In this document: piece by piece, positions 3,506 to 48,796 of the stretch
How positions within the stretch are numbered: the stretch's first letter is position 1
How the letters are laid out: every line of letters begins with the position of its first letter
NCBI GenBank assembly: GCA_965199995.1
Contig: OZ241328.1
Span: forward strand, 524,316 to 588,315
Reading direction: 5' to 3'
From: Dehalococcoidia bacterium
Lineage (GTDB): Bacteria > Chloroflexota > Dehalococcoidia > Lucifugimonadales > UBA3495
Length of the DNA: 64,000 nt
The notes under the pieces: generated by a model
Seen by the model: the letters and a program-made list of their open reading frames with translations, nothing else
Databases searched by the model: none
Told to the model about the DNA's origin: nothing
Translations under genes and position numbers: made by a program

Positions 3506-3823
3506 TTAGGAGCTGGACCCTGTTGCGCCGTCGCCATCAAACATTCCTGCGTTAGGGTTCTCGAGAATATACCCGATAACCAATTCGCAGGTTTCTGGAC
3601 TGCTTATAACAGCCACCCGACTTACGTCGCCTTTCATGCCGACTGTGAACTTGGGGAACTCGCACTCTTCGTCAACCCGTGTACCTTGGCCCACAACGTC
3701 GCCGACAGGTATCCCGGATTGCGCTGGCCCTCCCTCAATTTGTATCCAGGCGATGGTGTTGCCGGGAGACTCCGCAGATACGTCCGGCGAGAACAGCAGC
3801 AAGAAAATCACCGTAACAGCCAA
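3506..3823 (-). CDS. hypothetical small secreted protein
   Basis: 105-aa ORF with a signal-peptide-like N-terminus (MAVTVIFLLLFSPDVSA/ES) and an AT-rich region upstream. No family was recognised. Confidence 0.3.
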   Translation of the reverse strand: MAVTVIFLLLFSPDVSAESPGNTIAWIQIEGGPAQSGIPVGDVVGQGTRVDEECEFPKFTVGMKGDVSRVAVISSPETCELVIGYILENPNAGMFDGDGATGSSS

Positions 3824-4040
3824 GAATGCCTACCACGGGTTTACCCGTGTGAGGATTACCCAAGCATTTGGTGAATCTTTCCTTGGGATACTTCCAACCG
3901 GTACTTTGGCCTTTGAATAATTGTAATATATTGAAATAATATATATTCTATATATGCCAAGCCGGTTAATTGCTGTACGCGCCATGATGTCTGCCTGCGT
4001 GGGCGAGCTAAGGCGTGCTTTAGCGCGGCATAAACTTTTG

Positions 4041-33153: not shown

Positions 33154-34104
33154 TCACCACCAGATTTTGCCCTTGGATTCGTTCCGCAGTTGGTCGTAGT
33201 CCCTAGTCCAGAGAGCGGTGCTTAGATATTTCCAGCCCCCGTCGGCCAGGAGGCAGACAATGGAGCCGCGCTCCATGCGCTCGGCCTGCCGGATAGCCCC
33301 GTAGACTACCGAGCCGGAGGATACGCCGGCGAAGATGCCTTCCTCGGTCAGTAGCCGCTTGGTGGTCTGGAAAGCCTCAAAGCTGCCCACCAGCATCCGC
33401 GAGTCTAGCAGGCTGATGTCTAGAATCGGCGGGATAAAACCGTGCTCCAGGCTGCGCAGGCCAGATATGAAGTCGTCAGGGTCGGGGGCGACGGCGACGA
33501 TTTTCACGGCGGGGTTGTATTCCTTGAGCCGACGGGCGACGCCCATCAATGTGCCGCCGGTGCCTAGACCGGCGACGAACATATCAACGTCGGGGATGGC
33601 CTCGATGATTTCCGGGCCAGTGGTCTCGTAGTGGGCGCCCGGGTTGCCATCGTTGCCGTACTGATACATCATCAGGTAGTCATGAGGCTGTTTCTCAATG
33701 ATGTCTTGGGCCACCTCGATGGAGCCGTTGGTGCCTTTGGATCCGTCGGAAGAGACAATTTCCGCGCCATAGGCTTCCAGCAACTGAATCCGCTCAACGC
33801 TGACGTTTTCAGGCATCACCACGGCGACCTTGTAGCCCTTCATGCGGCCAATCATCGCCAGAGATATGCCGGTATTGCCGCTGGTTGGCTCCAGGATGGT
33901 ACGGGAGCCGCTCAGTTCGCCGCAGGCCTCGGCCTGCTCAATCATCTTGAGGGCGATGCGGTCTTTGACGCTGCCGGTGGGGTTAGCCCCCTCCAGCTTG
34001 GCGAAGATTCGCACTTCCGGCTTGGGACTCAGGTTTTGCAGCTCCACCGTCGGCGTGTTGCCAATGGTGTCCAAAATGCCTTTATAAGTCAGCTTCGCAA
34101 CCAT
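33154..34104 (-). CDS. cysteine synthase family PLP enzyme (CysM/CysK-like)
   Basis: 316 aa. NPTGSVKDRIA (PLP lysine) and GTGGT loop. Confidence 0.85.
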   Translation of the reverse strand: MVAKLTYKGILDTIGNTPTVELQNLSPKPEVRIFAKLEGANPTGSVKDRIALKMIEQAEACGELSGSRTILEPTSGNTGISLAMIGRMKGYKVAVVMPENVSVERIQLLEAYGAEIVSSDGSKGTNGSIEVAQDIIEKQPHDYLMMYQYGNDGNPGAHYETTGPEIIEAIPDVDMFVAGLGTGGTLMGVARRLKEYNPAVKIVAVAPDPDDFISGLRSLEHGFIPPILDISLLDSRMLVGSFEAFQTTKRLLTEEGIFAGVSSGSVVYGAIRQAERMERGSIVCLLADGGWKYLSTALWTRDYDQLRNESKGKIWW

Positions 34105-34128
34105 CTATGACCTGTTGCTGGTTTCAAC

Positions 34129-34201
34129 GCAGAGGATGCGGAGACCTCGCAGAAATTAACTGATGATTAGGGTTCTCTGCGAAATTTTCTGGACCCTCTG
34201 C
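34129..34201. repeat. imperfect long hairpin between cysteine synthase and moeB-like gene
   Basis: gcagagg...tcgcagaa pairs with ttctctgcga...cctctgc. Confidence 0.5.
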
Positions 34202-34238
34202 ATTGAGACGTTTATTTGCTTGGGCATTGGGGTTCGGA

Positions 34239-35087
34239 CTAATGCGCGCCGACGGCCGCCGGCTCCTCGTGGGGGGCTGCCACTCCGCAGAAGACTTCAT
34301 AGTCTATCAGCTCAGTAACGGAAGGATTGTCGCCGCACAACGGGCACTTGGGGTTCCGCTTGAGGCGCACCTCGCGGAAGCTCATATCCAGCGCGTCCAC
34401 GATGAGCAGGCGCGAGGACAGGGACTGCCCGATGCCTAGGAAGTGCTTGAGGGCCTCGGTGGCCTGAATGCTGCCCACCAGTCCGGTCATGGAGCCAAGC
34501 ACACCGGCTTCGGCGCAGTTGGGCACCATCCCCGGCGGCGGGGGCGACGGGAACAAGCAGCGGTAGCAGCCTTCGCCGGGGATGAACACCGTGGCCTGGC
34601 CGTCGAAGGTCAGGATGCTGCCGTCCACCAGCGGCTTGTCCAGCAGGTAGCAGGCGTCGTTAACCAAGTAACGGGTGGCGAAATTGTCGGCGCCGTTCAC
34701 CACCAGGTCGTACTGTTCGATGATTTCCATGGCGTTTTCGGAGTTCAGCCAAGTTTCGTGCAGGACAACGTTTACGTCGGGGTTGTAGGACTTGATGTTG
34801 TCCAAGGCCGACTGTACCTTGGGGCGTCCCACGTCGGCGGTGTGGTGCAGCACCTGGCGTTGGAGGTTGGAGAGGTCCACTACGTCCAAGTCCACGATGC
34901 CGAGGGTGCCGACGCCGGCCAGGGCGAGATAGATGGCGCTGGGAGAGCCGAGGCCGCCGGCGCCGATGATGAGAGCCTTGGACTGCATGAGGGCGCGCTG
35001 ACCCTTGGATCCGACGTCGCCCATAATGATGTGGCGGCTGTACCGTTTGACCTGTTCGGGAGTCAGGGCAATGGGTTGAGTGGCCAT
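34239..35087 (-). CDS. MoeB/ThiF-family E1-like adenylyltransferase (no rhodanese domain)
   Basis: 282 aa. RYSRHI, IIGAGGLGS, DLSNLQRQ, CYRCLFP and KCPLCG motifs. AGGAGG RBS. Confidence 0.85.
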   Translation of the reverse strand: MATQPIALTPEQVKRYSRHIIMGDVGSKGQRALMQSKALIIGAGGLGSPSAIYLALAGVGTLGIVDLDVVDLSNLQRQVLHHTADVGRPKVQSALDNIKSYNPDVNVVLHETWLNSENAMEIIEQYDLVVNGADNFATRYLVNDACYLLDKPLVDGSILTFDGQATVFIPGEGCYRCLFPSPPPPGMVPNCAEAGVLGSMTGLVGSIQATEALKHFLGIGQSLSSRLLIVDALDMSFREVRLKRNPKCPLCGDNPSVTELIDYEVFCGVAAPHEEPAAVGAH

Positions 35088-35185
35088 AGTTATGGTTCCT
35101 CCTGTTCATCCTGAGCTTGTCGAAAGGGCGTTGAATTCCGCCTTCGCTGGGAAGGGCCGCGCCGGAATTATCTTTGCAGGGGGGT

Positions 35186-35245
35186 CAAACAAAAAACCTG
35201 CTCCGGCCCTCGATGGGCGCCCCGGGCGGGGCGGGCGCAGGTTTC
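35186..35245 (-). terminator. intrinsic terminator inside the moeB-cysM leader
   Basis: On the minus strand, AACCUGC...GC-rich...GCAGGUU followed by UUUUUGUUU, about 100 nt upstream of the moeB-like ATG. Confidence 0.6.
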
Positions 35246-35336
35246 AGGCGAAAGGCAACAGAAACCGCCCCCTATGTCGGAGGACAGATGCAAGCGCAAT
35301 CGCAACGGCTGTTCGGCATGTCCATCTAGCGTTGCG

Positions 35337-35366
35337 AGTGTAGCGCGGCACAACAGCGGTTGTCAA
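35337..35366 (-). promoter_or_regulatory. candidate sigma-70-type promoter of the moeB-cysM leader
   Basis: On the minus strand, TTGACA (35366-35361)-N18-TACACT (35342-35337), 17 nt after the res stop. Confidence 0.5.
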
Positions 35367-35382: not shown

Positions 35383-37908
35383 TCAGGCTTTGTAGACCCC
35401 ATTTAGACTAGCAAGGACTTGATCAAATTTAACGCCCCCAAACACGAGGCGGAAGGTGCCTTTGGCCGGGCCGTCGTTGATGGTCATTGTGCCGGCGTTG
35501 AAGGCGCGTTCCAAAGTCTCGAATACTTTCTTTTTATACTGCGTGTCGTCGTTGCCCTTGAGATGCTCGCCTTTGGTCTCGAATACCAGAATATGCGGTT
35601 TGCCGGTGGTGTCGCCAGCCATAGCCACAAAATCAGGCCAGATGCGTTCCCGTTTCCATCCCCGCAGATAATAGTCTCCTTGCTGGCGCACGGCCACCCG
35701 GTGCCACCAGTGCAGCGCCTTTTGCTCGTCCAGATAACGGGCGAAATTCCTCTCCAGGTCGCTATCGAAATGACGGGCCAGCACTGGCTCGAACAGCGAA
35801 ATTTGTAACGGCTTTCCATAGCTCTGCAAAGCGGATTCGTCTACGCTTACGGGGATTTCATAACTTTCCCGTACTTTGAAGCTGTGGTCGTTGGACTCCA
35901 GGTCGAAGCTGATTTCTCTCTGGCTAAGTTTGTCCAGGAAAATCTTTTCTGACAGATTTTCCACCTTTTCAGACACATGATCCCGCAATGACGCTGCCAG
36001 GTTGCCGCGCTGGTCGTAGATGGCATCACCGGTCATGCCGCCCCTGCGCCGATGATCTACCAACTCTGTCGCGATGCGGGCAGCCTGCCACGGATTAGGC
36101 ACTATGTCGGCCAGACGGCGGGCGAACCAGGATATGCAGACGGTTTTGTCAATGTAAATTTCCCGCTCAGGATGATAAACCTCTTGCTGGCCCCCGACGT
36201 CCACTGTGGCCGATTGTTGCCGGGCAGCCTGGTCCAGCCCACCGTGCGTTTCGGGGATGCCAATAGAGGCCCAATTGATATGCGGCAGTATGTGTTGCTG
36301 ATAATCCAGTTCGCGCCAGCCATCCCCATCCCGGTGATTGACCCTCGGCAAAAATATCTTCTGGCCCCGGAACTTTTTTCTACGCTCTAATTTTGTGCGC
36401 TGGAAATCCCCGGATTCTGAGACAACGTCATCTCCCAATCCGGTCATCCCTTCCTGCTCCAGCCCGTTCTTGACCTGCTTTACCGCAACCCCTACATCGG
36501 TGTTCCAGCAGTAGACATAGCACTGGTCCAGGGCTTCGCGCCCGGTGCGGCGGGCATGGGGCTGCCGCATCACCCGGCCCACTAGCTGGGTGATGGCGCG
36601 CTGCGCCGAGGTGTTGTCCAGCATCACCAGAACGTAGGCAAAGGGGCAATCCCAGCCTTCCATCAGGGCGGCGCGGGTGATTATCCATCGCACCGGCGAA
36701 TACTCCGACAGCAGGTCTTTGCGGCCCAGCTCGTCGTTTTCCGCCGACTTTACCAGTACCTGCTCGGCAGGAACACCCAGGTTTAGTGTCAGATACTGGC
36801 GCACGTCCTCGGCGTGAACCCGCTCGCCGTCCCGCTGGTCTTTGCCGGTGCGCTCCACTCGCACCACAGCGATGGGGCGGATGTAGCGGCCTTCGTTCGC
36901 TTCCAGCGACATCGCTTCGGCGGCGACGCGCTCCAGTTCTTCATGCGCCTGCCCCAAGGTGTACTGCCATTCGGCGCCAGGGAAGGTAGTTACCTGCACG
37001 GGCAGCTTTATCATTTCTTCGTCTTTCAGTTCGACGCCGGTGATGTCCACCAGCAGATTGCTGATGCGATGGTTGGGCGTGGCTGACAACTCTATGACCA
37101 TTTGCGGATTCAGACGGTTGACCGACTGGACGAACTCGCTGGCGTCATTGGCCCGGCCATAGGCTTTATGCGCTTCGTCGAGCACTACCACGGGACGCAT
37201 CATCTTGAAGACATTAAACAGGCTGTGCTTGACCTGCCCGCCCTCAGATGTTCGCTCCAAGTCTGGGTGTTGCTCCAGCAGGCGGCCGTCGCCCAAAGCG
37301 TCGTCGCTATCGGGAAACAGCGTCGGGTAGCGGCCCGAATCGTGGAACATCCGCAAAAACTCCCGGCCTTTCTGCCGGTTAGCGGCGGGCAGCATCAGCA
37401 GCATCACGCACAGATAGTTGTTGACATCGCCGAGGTTGAAAGGCGTTTCCTTTTCCAGCAGTTTGACGCGCCCGCCGCTGGCCCGCTCCAGCATCTGCCG
37501 GTAAGGATGTTCCCGGTTCTTGAGGGCTTCCCAAGTCTGCTGGTAGATGGCCTTAGTGGGCGTTATCCACAGCGTGAGGCTGGTAGGCCGATTCAGCCGT
37601 TCCAGCGCCGCGGCGGCCAGCAGAGTCTTGCCCCCGCCGGTGGGAACCTTGAAGCAGACGTGGGGGATGGGGCGCCCGGCCCCGTCGGTTCGCTCCACGT
37701 AGTCTTGAGACGGATTGGCTACCTCGCCGGCCTCGGCCAGCTTCTGCCAAGCGGCGCGGGGATAGTTGCGAACCTCGGAAGGCGCATCTAATCCGGCCTG
37801 TCGCAAAGCGGCGATACCGGCTTCGCTCTGCTCCTGCGCCGTTTCCAGCGCGCTCAGCCAGCGGCCAAAGGCGTCAAGGGCCTTACGCTGATACTCTTTC
37901 AGTTCCAA
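35383..37908 (-). CDS. res: Type III restriction enzyme Res subunit (SF2 helicase plus C-terminal PD-(D/E)XK nuclease)
   Basis: 841 aa. Walker A VPTGGGKT, DEAH box (VVLDEAHK), C-terminal PDFVAM...LVFETKGEH. It lies downstream of mod on the same strand. Confidence 0.85.
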   Translation of the reverse strand: MELKEYQRKALDAFGRWLSALETAQEQSEAGIAALRQAGLDAPSEVRNYPRAAWQKLAEAGEVANPSQDYVERTDGAGRPIPHVCFKVPTGGGKTLLAAAALERLNRPTSLTLWITPTKAIYQQTWEALKNREHPYRQMLERASGGRVKLLEKETPFNLGDVNNYLCVMLLMLPAANRQKGREFLRMFHDSGRYPTLFPDSDDALGDGRLLEQHPDLERTSEGGQVKHSLFNVFKMMRPVVVLDEAHKAYGRANDASEFVQSVNRLNPQMVIELSATPNHRISNLLVDITGVELKDEEMIKLPVQVTTFPGAEWQYTLGQAHEELERVAAEAMSLEANEGRYIRPIAVVRVERTGKDQRDGERVHAEDVRQYLTLNLGVPAEQVLVKSAENDELGRKDLLSEYSPVRWIITRAALMEGWDCPFAYVLVMLDNTSAQRAITQLVGRVMRQPHARRTGREALDQCYVYCWNTDVGVAVKQVKNGLEQEGMTGLGDDVVSESGDFQRTKLERRKKFRGQKIFLPRVNHRDGDGWRELDYQQHILPHINWASIGIPETHGGLDQAARQQSATVDVGGQQEVYHPEREIYIDKTVCISWFARRLADIVPNPWQAARIATELVDHRRRGGMTGDAIYDQRGNLAASLRDHVSEKVENLSEKIFLDKLSQREISFDLESNDHSFKVRESYEIPVSVDESALQSYGKPLQISLFEPVLARHFDSDLERNFARYLDEQKALHWWHRVAVRQQGDYYLRGWKRERIWPDFVAMAGDTTGKPHILVFETKGEHLKGNDDTQYKKKVFETLERAFNAGTMTINDGPAKGTFRLVFGGVKFDQVLASLNGVYKA

Positions 37909-37952
37909 TGCCGCCCCTGGATATTCTCAAAGTGCGCCGGTAATAGGACCGC

Positions 37953-38270
37953 CGCTCTCTCCCAATCATTGTCCGCCGCTCCTCGTCATTCCCGCGAAAG
38001 CGGGAATCTACGCTACTAACCTGCGAAAGATAGTATCTGCCCAAGTTCCTGGATTCCCGCTCCTCGTTTTCAAGGGGACAAGCTTTGCGGGAATGACGGG
38101 CACGCCGTCTGTCATCCCCCGTCGCTCTCTCCCAATCATTGTCCGCCGCCCCTCGTCATTCCCGCGAAAGCGGGAATCTACGCTACTAACCTGCGAAAGA
38201 TAGTATCTGCCCAAGTTCCTGTATTCCCGCTCCCCGTTTTCAAGGGGACAAGCTTTGCGGGAATGATGGG
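37953..38270. repeat. tandem duplication (period 170 bp) of a composite REP/MITE-like element between mod and res
   Basis: Copy 1 is at 37953-38100 and copy 2 at 38123-38270, with only a few mismatches. Each contains ttcccgcgaaagcgggaa and cccgctcc(c/t)cgttttcaaggggacaagctttgcggg hairpins. Confidence 0.9.
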
Positions 38271-38280
38271 AGGCTCCCAC

Positions 38281-40166
38281 CTATCTGCTGCGGGCTGTGT
38301 GGATTTCGTAGGGCAGTTGGCAGAAGGTGATGCCCATGCTGGTAAGCTCGCGCTGGCCGATGTACTTATCAGGGGCGAACACGATGGCTCCCTTGCCCTC
38401 GGCGCGGGCCGCCTTGCTGATGCTATGGGAGCGTTCTTGGTTCAGGGTTGCCTCGTTACTCCGCAGGTAATCCAGGTCGGGTTCATAGAACAGGTGATAG
38501 TTGTTCTTGCCGCTGCTGTAAAACAATCGGTCGCTCCCCTGGGGCCTCAACTTCCCTCTGCTTACGGATATGCCAGAGACAGTATGCACCAGATAGGCGG
38601 CCAGTTGGTCAAAGGAGGGCAGGGCCTCTCCGGTCAGCATACCTTCTAAGTCGATGGGTTCGCCTAGGGTGCAATAGGTGAAGGAGCCGCCCAGTCCCTC
38701 CCGCAACGCGGGGTCGCGGGCCCCCGGCACTCCGTTGATGACGCGGCGGACGCGCTCGGCGGTGATACTATCGGCGTAGTCTTCGCACTCGACGAGGATG
38801 AACTGGCGGTTGCCGCCGTCTTCCTGGTTCAGCGCGAGGACGGCGTGGGCCGTGGTGCCGCTGCCAGCGAAAGAATCGAGGACGATGTCGTTGTGGCCTG
38901 GTGCGCCGATCCTCAATAAATCCGACATCAAAGCAACTGCTTTGGGGTAGGGGAACCTTTCGTTAGCATCGTATAATATTTGAGAAAGTGTTTGTCCTCC
39001 AGCACGGCTACTATATTCGGCCTTGTAAAAGACTGATTTAGGTTTTTCTGTAGGTAAATCGCCGAGCTGAGGGCGTTGCTTTGAATATATTGCCATGCTA
39101 CCGTCCCTGCGTTGCTGAGCGAACACGTCGCTCGGGTTTTCACGCACTCTGGCTTTGCTCCAACGCCATATCGCCCGTGCCTCTCCGTTGCGAACCCTTG
39201 GGTTCACTGTAGTGAACGGTCCCCCAATATCTGGCTCTTCGTCATCGTTCGTGATGTGGACCGCTCCATCAGGACCCACAAAAATCGGGTAGTCAAGCGA
39301 CTCTGAGTACGTCAAACTACCGCGTTGCAGTAACTCTGGTTTGTAATACCCGGTGTCATCGCGGTGCCATTCTTCAAGAGCATTCCCTTGAACGGGAAAC
39401 CGTCCTAGATTTACTTCATTACGGTTTTTGGCGTACACCAAGCAATGCTCGTGGGCGCCGGCGAAACCAAATTGGTCGCTGCTACCCGCCAGATTTGCCA
39501 CGACGGCTAGATTAGCGATGAAGCTCGCCGCCCCCCAAACGTCGTCCATCATCATGCGCAGATGGTGCTGTTCGTTATCGTCGATGGAGACGAAAATGAC
39601 GCCATCGTCAGCAAGCAACTCTTTGAGCAGTTGCAGGCGGGGCCACATCATACAGAGCCACTTGTCGTGGCGTTCTAGGTCTTCGGTGTCAACGATTTGA
39701 TTCAGCCACTCCCTCATCAGGGGGCTGTTCACCTTGTCGTTATAGGCCCAGCCTTCATTGCCGGTGTTATAGGGCGGGTCGATGTAGATGCACTTGACGC
39801 GGTTGGCGTAGCGAGGAAGGAGGGCTTTGAGGGCGTGGAGGTTGTCGCCGTGGATGATGAGGTTACCGTCGGGCAGAACGGAATTAGAACTATCGTTCAG
39901 CTCTCTCTCTCTCTCTCTCTCGACATATGTTCTAATATCGACTTATCCGGGTGGGGAATCAGCGGACGGTGAGGAATAGTGAGGTGGTGGGCGTAGACAG
40001 TCTGCTTACCTTTGAACTCCAGGGAAGGCAAAGCACATCTCTCCGGCGGGTTGATGGAGTGTATACTACACCCCTCCGCGACAATTTTCATCATTGCATA
40101 TAGAGACCCCAGCAACTGCCGGGGCCGTTGTGGTTTGCGGAGAGGCCAGGGGTTAGGTCGAGTCAT
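38281..40166 (-). pseudogene. mod: Type III R-M Mod (beta-class N6-adenine methyltransferase) split by a (GA)10 tract; phase-OFF frameshift
   Basis: The downstream frame carries IIHGDNLHALKALLPRYANRVKCIYIDPPYNTG ... DSFAGSGTT and is open up to 39942 with no start codon. The upstream 89-codon ORF (ATG 40166) ends at TGA 39899-39897, directly after the tract. Removing 2 nt fuses them into 627 aa. Confidence 0.8.
39901..39921 (-). repeat. dinucleotide simple-sequence repeat, (GA)10G on the coding strand of mod
   Basis: The plus strand reads ctctctctctctctctctctc, located at the junction of the two mod reading frames. Confidence 0.97.
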
Positions 40167-48697: not shown

Positions 48698-48796
48698 CTA
48701 ATTCATCCTGAGCTTATCGAGGGAGTTATACCGCATCTAGCCGACGAGATTCCCTGCGAGCTGGGCGCGCTGCTGTGCGCCCAATAACATATTATC

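Follow-up and report, generated by a model that had tools for sequence, protein, structure and literature searches.

The leader described here is located on the minus strand of a 64,000-nt stretch of Dehalococcoidia DNA (the window), in the 295-nt gap that separates a gene of the ThiF/MoeB family from a res gene of type III restriction. The latter is followed by a cysteine synthase gene, whose product scores 352.7 bits against the NCBIfam cysKM subfamily (cut-off 344.15), and then by cobQ, nusA and infB. The gap holds a promoter, a short Open Reading Frame (ORF) with four cysteine codons, and four RNA regions that can pair in alternative ways. Coordinates are collected in Table 1.

Table 1. 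Features of the leader and its neighbouring genes, in window positions
Feature	Position	Strand	Basis or remark
Type III restriction res gene	35383-37908	minus	upstream neighbour of the leader
-35 hexamer TTGACA	35361..35366	minus	promoter scan; TTGAC kept in relatives
-10 hexamer TACACT, 18-nt spacer	35337..35342	minus	promoter scan
Leader ORF, 17 codons + TAG, encoding MDMPNSRCDCACICPPT-stop	35272..35325	minus	read from aligned upstream regions; ATG at 35325, TAG at 35274-35272
Four Cys codons: TGC 35304-35302, TGC 35298-35296, TGC 35292-35290, TGT 35286-35284	35284..35304	minus	proposed regulatory codons
Region 1, UCUGUCCUCC	35279..35288	minus	5' arm of 1:2 hairpin; within the ORF, spanning the last Cys codon and the Pro codons
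Region 2, GGGGGCGGUUUC	35261..35272	minus	its first base is the G of TAG; alternative partners are regions 1 and 3
Region 3, GAAACCUGCGCCCGCCCC	35228..35245	minus	terminator 5' arm and antiterminator 3' arm
Two small G+C-rich hairpins, GCCCC-GCCC-GGGGC and GCCC-AUCGA-GGGC	35206..35232	minus	inside the terminator stem; fold of the window sequence
Region 4, GGAGCAGGUU, and U-tract, UUUUUUGUUUG	35186..35205	minus	terminator 3' arm (35205-35195), U-tract on to 35186; expected attenuated 3' end
Shine-Dalgarno AGGAGG of the ThiF/MoeB gene	35098..35103	minus	read off the sequence
ThiF/MoeB-family adenylyltransferase, 282 aa (regulated gene 1)	34239..35087	minus	Pfam ThiF E = 1.2e-81; NCBIfam MoeB subfamily NF004281 above cut-off
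Cysteine synthase, CysK/CysM type, 316 aa (regulated gene 2)	33154..34104	minus	Pfam PALP; NCBIfam cysKM subfamily

Relatives of the locus were collected by a ThiF protein scan with one genome per species. It gave 80 loci (ThiF 81–99% identical), all from SAR202/Dehalococcoidia (Chloroflexota) metagenome-assembled genomes, and ten near-identical contigs from the same strain were also found. When the leader is compared with these relatives by blastn, the conserved block begins at the -10 box and ends with the U-tract (35348-35186); neither the sequence next to res nor the roughly 100 nt preceding the thiF Shine-Dalgarno is conserved. A covariance model built from 68 sequences has one match in the window (35188-35301, 97.5 bits), and at 75 of the 80 related loci it matches upstream of ThiF, ahead of the same ThiF-cysteine synthase pair. 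The original prediction had named a lack of conservation of the leader in related genomes as a refutation; the leader is conserved in them. The gene beyond the element varies among the relatives (type III R-M, HNH, Rrf2).

No second copies of the element were found by covariance-model search in the window or in the 4-kb flanks of the 80 loci, and the minus-strand matches of the model represent the palindromic terminator only. We also scanned metagenomes with the pattern CTGTCCNNNNACATAGGG for other genes behind the element. At least 120 stretches match, none of them a true one among the matches listed: the 80 listed loci are all chance matches or an unrelated repeat, and region 3 with the U-tract is present in none. 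The pattern is too weak for the metagenome collection.

The promoter TTGACA-N18-TACACT (35366-35337), which the original prediction had placed at the head of the leader, ranks first among the sigma-70-like matches over 5.5 kb around it (10/12), and 67 of 68 aligned relatives have a TTGACN-17/18-TAnnnT box. For thiF itself, no separate promoter is evident. In the window, the ATG of the leader ORF comes 11 nt after the -10 hexamer, which leaves no room for a Shine-Dalgarno sequence. The same short distance is found among relatives (4–16 nt; 8–12 nt in 61 of 64), and it implies a 5' UTR of about 0–6 nt. The leader transcript is thus probably leaderless or nearly so, and translation of the leader ORF would have to begin in the same manner, since there is no room for a Shine-Dalgarno.

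At the other end of the leader, an intrinsic terminator (AACCUGC...GCAGGUU followed by UUUUUUGUUUG with its U6; about 35245-35186) is predicted at -29.3 kcal/mol, with a stem closing two inner hairpins. Most relatives show the G+C-rich blocks inside it, though their length varies, and CCUGCGCCC in region 3 is nearly invariant. In the 68-sequence alignment, 83.4% of the cells of this helix (3:4) are paired, with 12 compensatory cells and a mean of -26.9 kcal/mol. The competing helix 2:3, in which GGGGGCGGUUUC pairs with the terminator 5' arm, is paired in 87.4% of cells (mean -18.9 kcal/mol), with 8 compensatory cells that include a change from G:C to A:U in 5 sequences, and the minimum-energy fold of the region 2-3 segment pairs region 2 with region 3 in all 68 sequences. 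Helix 1:2 is paired in 83.6% of cells (mean -15.9 kcal/mol; -11.2 kcal/mol in the window), and its changes are one-sided only, none compensatory. For comparison, slid registers of the three helices reach 30–56% of cells paired overall (47–56% for 1:2 and 30–54% for 2:3). The 1:2 stem was also picked up alongside the promoter.

The consensus returned by RNAalifold for the 68 sequences is the outer stem of the terminator only, which fits a competition among regions 1, 2 and 3. Because the paired regions are highly conserved, the support from covariation is modest, and the argument rests mainly on conservation, register specificity and the ORF. Folded alone, the whole 252-nt leader has a z-score of -0.35; an unremarkable value is expected for an RNA with competing folds, for which single-sequence energy is uninformative. 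The original prediction had described the terminator, its rival pairing and a mutually exclusive control of the thiF-cysteine synthase operon, under a title that also allowed an attenuator, and this structural reading was right. It had further described a 5' stem (CGCAACG...CGUUGCG), which exists in the window and was rejected as a conserved element: the 5' part of the leader has no RNAalifold consensus structure, and its mean folding z-score is +0.26.

The 5' part of the leader is occupied by the leader ORF. As the ORF listing took frames of at least 20 codons, this 17-codon ORF was absent from the list, and the first reading of the sequence had overlooked it. In 64 of the 67 relatives having a recognisable promoter, the frame that starts with the first ATG past the -10 box is open and leads to an invariant TAG. 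A Cys codon stands four codons before the stop in all 64 of these ORFs and six codons before it in 63 of 64 (synonymously TGC in 28 and TGT in 35). Additional Cys codons, 8 and 10 codons ahead of the stop, occur among relatives, as in the window, where Cys is found at positions 8, 10, 12 and 14 (4 Cys per 17 codons), alternating as C-x-C-x-C-x-C and not consecutive. Nearly all relatives have 2–4 Cys in 15–19 residues. The peptides end in C-[T/A]-C-P-x-T, and the two Cys positions nearest the stop are the sole near-invariant positions of the peptide.

The N-terminal part of the ORF has diverged (43% identical at the DNA level). ORF lengths differ by whole codons only (15, 16, 17, 19, 23 and 29 codons), and the noncoding linker (18–24 nt) and the terminator interior (13–46 nt) vary by any number of bases. 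Among eight model matches outside the seed alignment, seven retain the leader ORF with the conserved TAG at its end (MTGIISKLPGACTCPPT and MNPPIKNSKTRCTCPPT are two of the peptides); in one of the seven (L043), the last Thr codon is changed synonymously from ACA to ACC. In the eighth (L046), the stop is shifted and the TAG is lost, and in L017 a 2-nt deletion breaks the frame of the leader ORF. As read from the alignments, the conserved start and frame, the whole-codon lengths, the synonymous changes and the divergent, unstructured N-terminus are a signature of translation and not of an aptamer.

The ORF and the helices are placed in a definite geometry: the last Cys codon lies within region 1, and the stop codon abuts region 2. 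We propose that the leader is a ribosome-mediated (leader-peptide) transcription attenuator of the trp type, which senses cysteine supply via Cys-tRNA(Cys), and we put the probability of this reading at about 0.8. Transcription would begin only a few nt upstream of the ATG (35325), and a ribosome would translate the 17-codon ORF while the polymerase moves on. When cysteine is scarce, the ribosome would stall at Cys codons 8, 10, 12 and 14 of the ORF. Codon 14 (UGU) lies inside region 1, and region 2 begins 14 nt downstream of it. Counted from the first base of the codon in the A site, a bacterial ribosome covers about 12–13 nt on the downstream side. With the last Cys codon (35286-35284) in this site, a stalled ribosome would therefore cover region 1, and its leading edge would end just short of region 2. 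The freed region 2 could then pair with the emerging region 3 to form the antiterminator, so that the terminator would be blocked and transcription would read through to thiF/moeB and the cysteine synthase gene. When cysteine is plentiful, the ribosome would reach the UAG and mask region 2, whose first base is the last base of the stop codon; after its departure, the 1:2 pairing would become possible. Either way region 3 would be left free for region 4, and the 3:4 pairing would lead to termination at the U-tract near 35190.

The leader is followed by genes from the pathway of the amino acid proposed to be sensed, for a ThiF/MoeB-type enzyme and then a cysteine synthase, and the cysteine-sensing reading fits them for this reason. 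Some members of the ThiF/MoeB-type family activate sulfur-carrier proteins. A search of the window for such a carrier, as a small ORF of the ThiS/MoaD/CysO kind with Gly-Gly at its end, found no plausible candidate, so a sulfur-carrier-dependent cysteine route for the SAR202 ThiF/MoeB-like gene is put forward here as a hypothesis.

Several points count against the attenuator reading. The leader ORF has no Shine-Dalgarno, and its initiation would have to be leaderless or near-leaderless; helix 1:2 has one-sided changes only; the Cys codons alternate; and L017 and L046 are exceptions. Moreover, the ACAUAG sequence and the Pro codon are conserved beyond the need of a pure codon-counting attenuator, which hints at an extra constraint.

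Such a constraint could act at the stop codon. The leader may be a two-input sensor, that is, the first terminator-type cysteine leader-peptide attenuator on cysteine biosynthesis, leaderless and in Chloroflexota, with a TnaC-like modulation of release by a sulfur metabolite at the invariant C-x-C-P-x-T-UAG end; we consider this unlikely. A TnaC-like mechanism in a broader sense, beside or replacing stalling at Cys codons, appears quite unlikely. Here the C-x-C-P-x-T-UAG peptide end and stop context would slow release, through a small molecule or the nascent chain, and a ribosome held over region 2 would favour termination. This would explain the excess conservation of ACAUAG, as Pro, Thr and UAG are conserved besides the Cys codons, and with the stop abutting region 2 a dwell at the stop would directly favour the terminator. 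However, several relatives have Leu, Thr or Ser in place of Pro, and the TAG is missing from L046. Helix 1:2 also depends on the CC of the Pro codon and on the G that follows UA, and this pairing accounts for the conservation of these bases at the level of RNA.

The original prediction had favoured a riboswitch of unknown class, with SAM, Moco or a sulfur metabolite as ligand. None of the 4227 models of Rfam 15 reaches its gathering threshold anywhere in the 64 kb window. With the limit relaxed to E = 10, this leader and its counterparts in two relatives yield unrelated chance matches only. Membership in the SAM, Moco and T-box families is rejected by these results. The original prediction had recognised no SAM-I, SAM-IV or T-box match by eye. 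The element CCUCCGAC, which it had likened to the Moco motif, has no support from Rfam and corresponds to Pro-Pro-Thr codons of the leader ORF. SAM-I to SAM-VI, SAM-SAH, Moco/Tuco and Cys T-box leaders are likewise cis-acting leaders with terminator/antiterminator platforms upstream of sulfur-metabolism genes, but the SAR202 element has neither a multi-helix aptamer nor a specifier or T-box sequence.

A metabolite riboswitch of a new class, in which the 1:2 hairpin with its ACAUA loop and flanks binds SAM, cysteine, sulfide or a Moco precursor and stabilises an anti-antiterminator to the benefit of the terminator, is in our view very unlikely. It could account for the strongly conserved nucleotides, some of them predicted unpaired (ACAUAG), beyond the need of codon identity; the expression platform is clear, and absence from Rfam would make the class new. 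However, the candidate aptamer is a single 9-bp hairpin with a 7-nt loop, which is very small, and neither a junction nor a pseudoknot was detected in it. The 5' third of the leader has no conserved sequence or structure, and the 5' 40 nt are unconserved and unstructured, yet the start codon and frame are retained; whole-codon length changes and synonymous substitutions are unexpected for a noncoding aptamer; and near-invariant Cys codons ahead of a cysteine synthase gene are directly explained by translation. Since the Cys-codon ORF explains every conserved feature and a riboswitch is unsupported, the sensed signal is most likely charged tRNA(Cys). The observation of the original prediction is thus confirmed, and its interpretation is partly supported.

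The least probable explanation is a free-standing product with only incidental adjacency to the operon, either a trans-acting sRNA of about 140 nt or a 17-aa Cys-rich functional small protein (a metal or sulfur binder): the strong promoter and terminator of its own and the conserved peptide C-terminus would suit it, but at 75 of 80 loci the element stands directly upstream of ThiF on the same strand, with a variable gene on its other side, thiF has no evident promoter of its own, the 2:3 pairing conserved in 68 of 68 sequences would be purposeless for a simple sRNA or small-protein gene, and the peptide is unconserved over its N-terminal two thirds. An sRNA of this length, raised in the original prediction, matches the terminated by-product of attenuation, and nothing suggests that it acts in trans.

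Classical leader-peptide attenuators control trp, his, leu, thr, ilv and pheA in Proteobacteria, and trp and ilvB in Actinobacteria. The SAR202 element resembles them in the 1:2 pairing, the 2:3 antiterminator, the 3:4 terminator with its U-tract, the stop codon near region 2 and the downstream genes that make the amino acid proposed to be sensed. Unlike them, it would sense cysteine, its Cys codons alternate, its leader ORF has no Shine-Dalgarno and starts 4–16 nt past the -10 hexamer, its terminator stem encloses two extra hairpins, and its host is an uncultured marine Chloroflexota.

Leader peptides with Cys codons were first noted in mycobacteria by Seliverstov et al. 2005 (PMC1262725), and the polycysteine leaderless sORFs of mycobacteria respond to cysteine according to Canestrari et al. 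2020 (10.1101/834739), who stated that uORF attenuation for cysteine was previously undescribed. Control in mycobacteria is translational, with the Shine-Dalgarno of the next gene sequestered or exposed and no terminator (10.1101/834739). The mycobacterial sORFs and the SAR202 element have in common a Cys-rich short ORF at the extreme 5' end, a cysteine-metabolism operon downstream and a proposed sensing of cysteine by stalling. However, the Cys codons are consecutive in the former and arranged as C-x-C-x-C-x-C in the latter, the SAR202 element has a conserved terminator/antiterminator about 100 nt before the next Shine-Dalgarno in place of a sequestered one, and there is no sequence similarity between the two. 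In the window, the CCUCC of region 1 could pair with the AGGAGG of thiF. Sequestration of the Shine-Dalgarno in the mycobacterial style was rejected as a conserved mechanism, since most relatives have CCCCC or CCGCC as region 1 and the spacer is unconserved.

A second case is uORFC-8-2, located upstream of cysS in Rhodobacterales, for which a terminator-type attenuator was predicted by Brewer et al. 2021 (PMC8632094), with tandem Cys codons at uORF positions 14-15. A conserved AUG, two highly conserved Cys codons in the first stem, a 3' U run and a reading as ribosome-mediated attenuation are shared with the SAR202 element, and both are predictions only. In contrast to uORFC-8-2, which belongs in Alphaproteobacteria to cysS, the gene of the Cys-tRNA synthetase, the SAR202 element is located in Chloroflexota at thiF-cysK/M and thus at cysteine biosynthesis, its Cys codons are not in tandem and its sequence is unrelated. 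On our best reading, the mycobacterial polycysteine sORFs and uORFC-8-2 would be its closest relatives. No prior description of the SAR202 element was found in full-text literature searches.

Before this analysis, experimental evidence for cysteine-sensing leader peptides came from mycobacteria alone, with control at the level of translation, and no terminator type had been predicted other than that of cysS in Rhodobacterales. The SAR202 element would join the cysteine-biosynthesis context of the former with the terminator mechanism of the latter, with a sequence of its own and in a different phylum, and the different phylum together with the terminator type suggests a repeated origin of such attenuators. 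What appeared to be an orphan riboswitch becomes a testable and conventional mechanism.

SAR202 is a very abundant uncultured lineage of the ocean. For the annotation of its genomes, the covariance model can be used together with a simple rule: TTGACA-17/18-TAGACT, an ATG about 10 nt later, an ORF ending in ...C-x-C-P-x-T-TAG, and a terminator. In the proposed attenuator reading, the element links the SAR202 ThiF/MoeB-like gene to cysteine supply, and not to molybdopterin or thiamine.

Two of the related SAR202/Dehalococcoidia loci carry variant leaders upstream of thiF. In L017, the reading frame of the leader peptide is broken by a 2-nt deletion in the Cys codon that stands 6 codons ahead of the stop; either decay or an error in long-read assembly could account for the deletion. 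In L046, the stop codon TAG is replaced by CAG and the ORF becomes 4 codons longer, ending at a TAG near the end of region 2, the segment shared by the 1:2 hairpin and the antiterminator. The window's copy of the leader has UUUCUGUU after the 1:2 hairpin, and a simple scan marks this combination as terminator-like. By analogy with the trp leader, the hairpin may act as a transcription pause hairpin, giving the ribosome time to catch up.

The stretch from the attenuator terminator to the Shine-Dalgarno sequence of thiF contains a short repeated element, (CC)TTCGACAAGCTCAGGATGAAC. A second copy with 3 mismatches was found 13.6 kb off, the number of matches expected by chance being 0, and copies similar to the element or its reverse complement exist in the upstream regions of several related loci (L008, L010, L065 and L069). 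The element looks like an intergenic repeat of the REP/MITE type.

The pattern scan of metagenomes also matched an abundant repeat, ...AAATATAATGG(C/T)CTGTCCTATTACATAGGGCG(A/G)CCATAA..., which has no relation to the attenuator. Among the matches listed, it occurs on many contigs from a few metagenome projects, at times with 2 copies per contig; its carriers, all Ga0056xxx and Ga0209xxx metagenome contigs, include L095, L098, L105, L107, L111 and L113 among others.

In the window, 134 nt separate thiF from the cysteine synthase gene; the corresponding spacer measures about 60 nt in L056 and about 447 nt in L001. No ThiS/MoaD/CysO-like sulfur-carrier ORF with a Gly-Gly end was found in the whole window.

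Features in the window and in related loci
Feature	Locus	Position	Strand
mod, type III restriction-modification	window	38281-39732	minus
res, type III restriction-modification	window	35383-37908	minus
1:2 hairpin with UUUCUGUU	window	35265-35287	minus
(CC)TTCGACAAGCTCAGGATGAAC	window	35104-35127	minus
(CC)TTCGACAAGCTCAGGATGAAC, second copy	window	48701-48721	minus
thiF-cysteine synthase spacer	window	34105-34238	minus
thiF-cysteine synthase spacer	L001	4850-5295	
HNH endonuclease gene	L001	2604-3371	
Rrf2-family regulator	L056	3260-3712	same
Variant leader	L017	about 3790-3830	
Variant leader	L046	about 3768-3830	

Close relatives differ in the gene directly upstream of the attenuator, a position that resembles an insertion hotspot. 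The window contains a type III restriction-modification pair there (35383-39732 in all), and L009 appears to have the same pair, while the place is taken by an HNH endonuclease gene in L001. In more distant relatives, for example L056, an Rrf2-family regulator is located directly upstream of the attenuator on the same strand, and it may provide a second control of the thiF-cysteine synthase operon, at the protein level.
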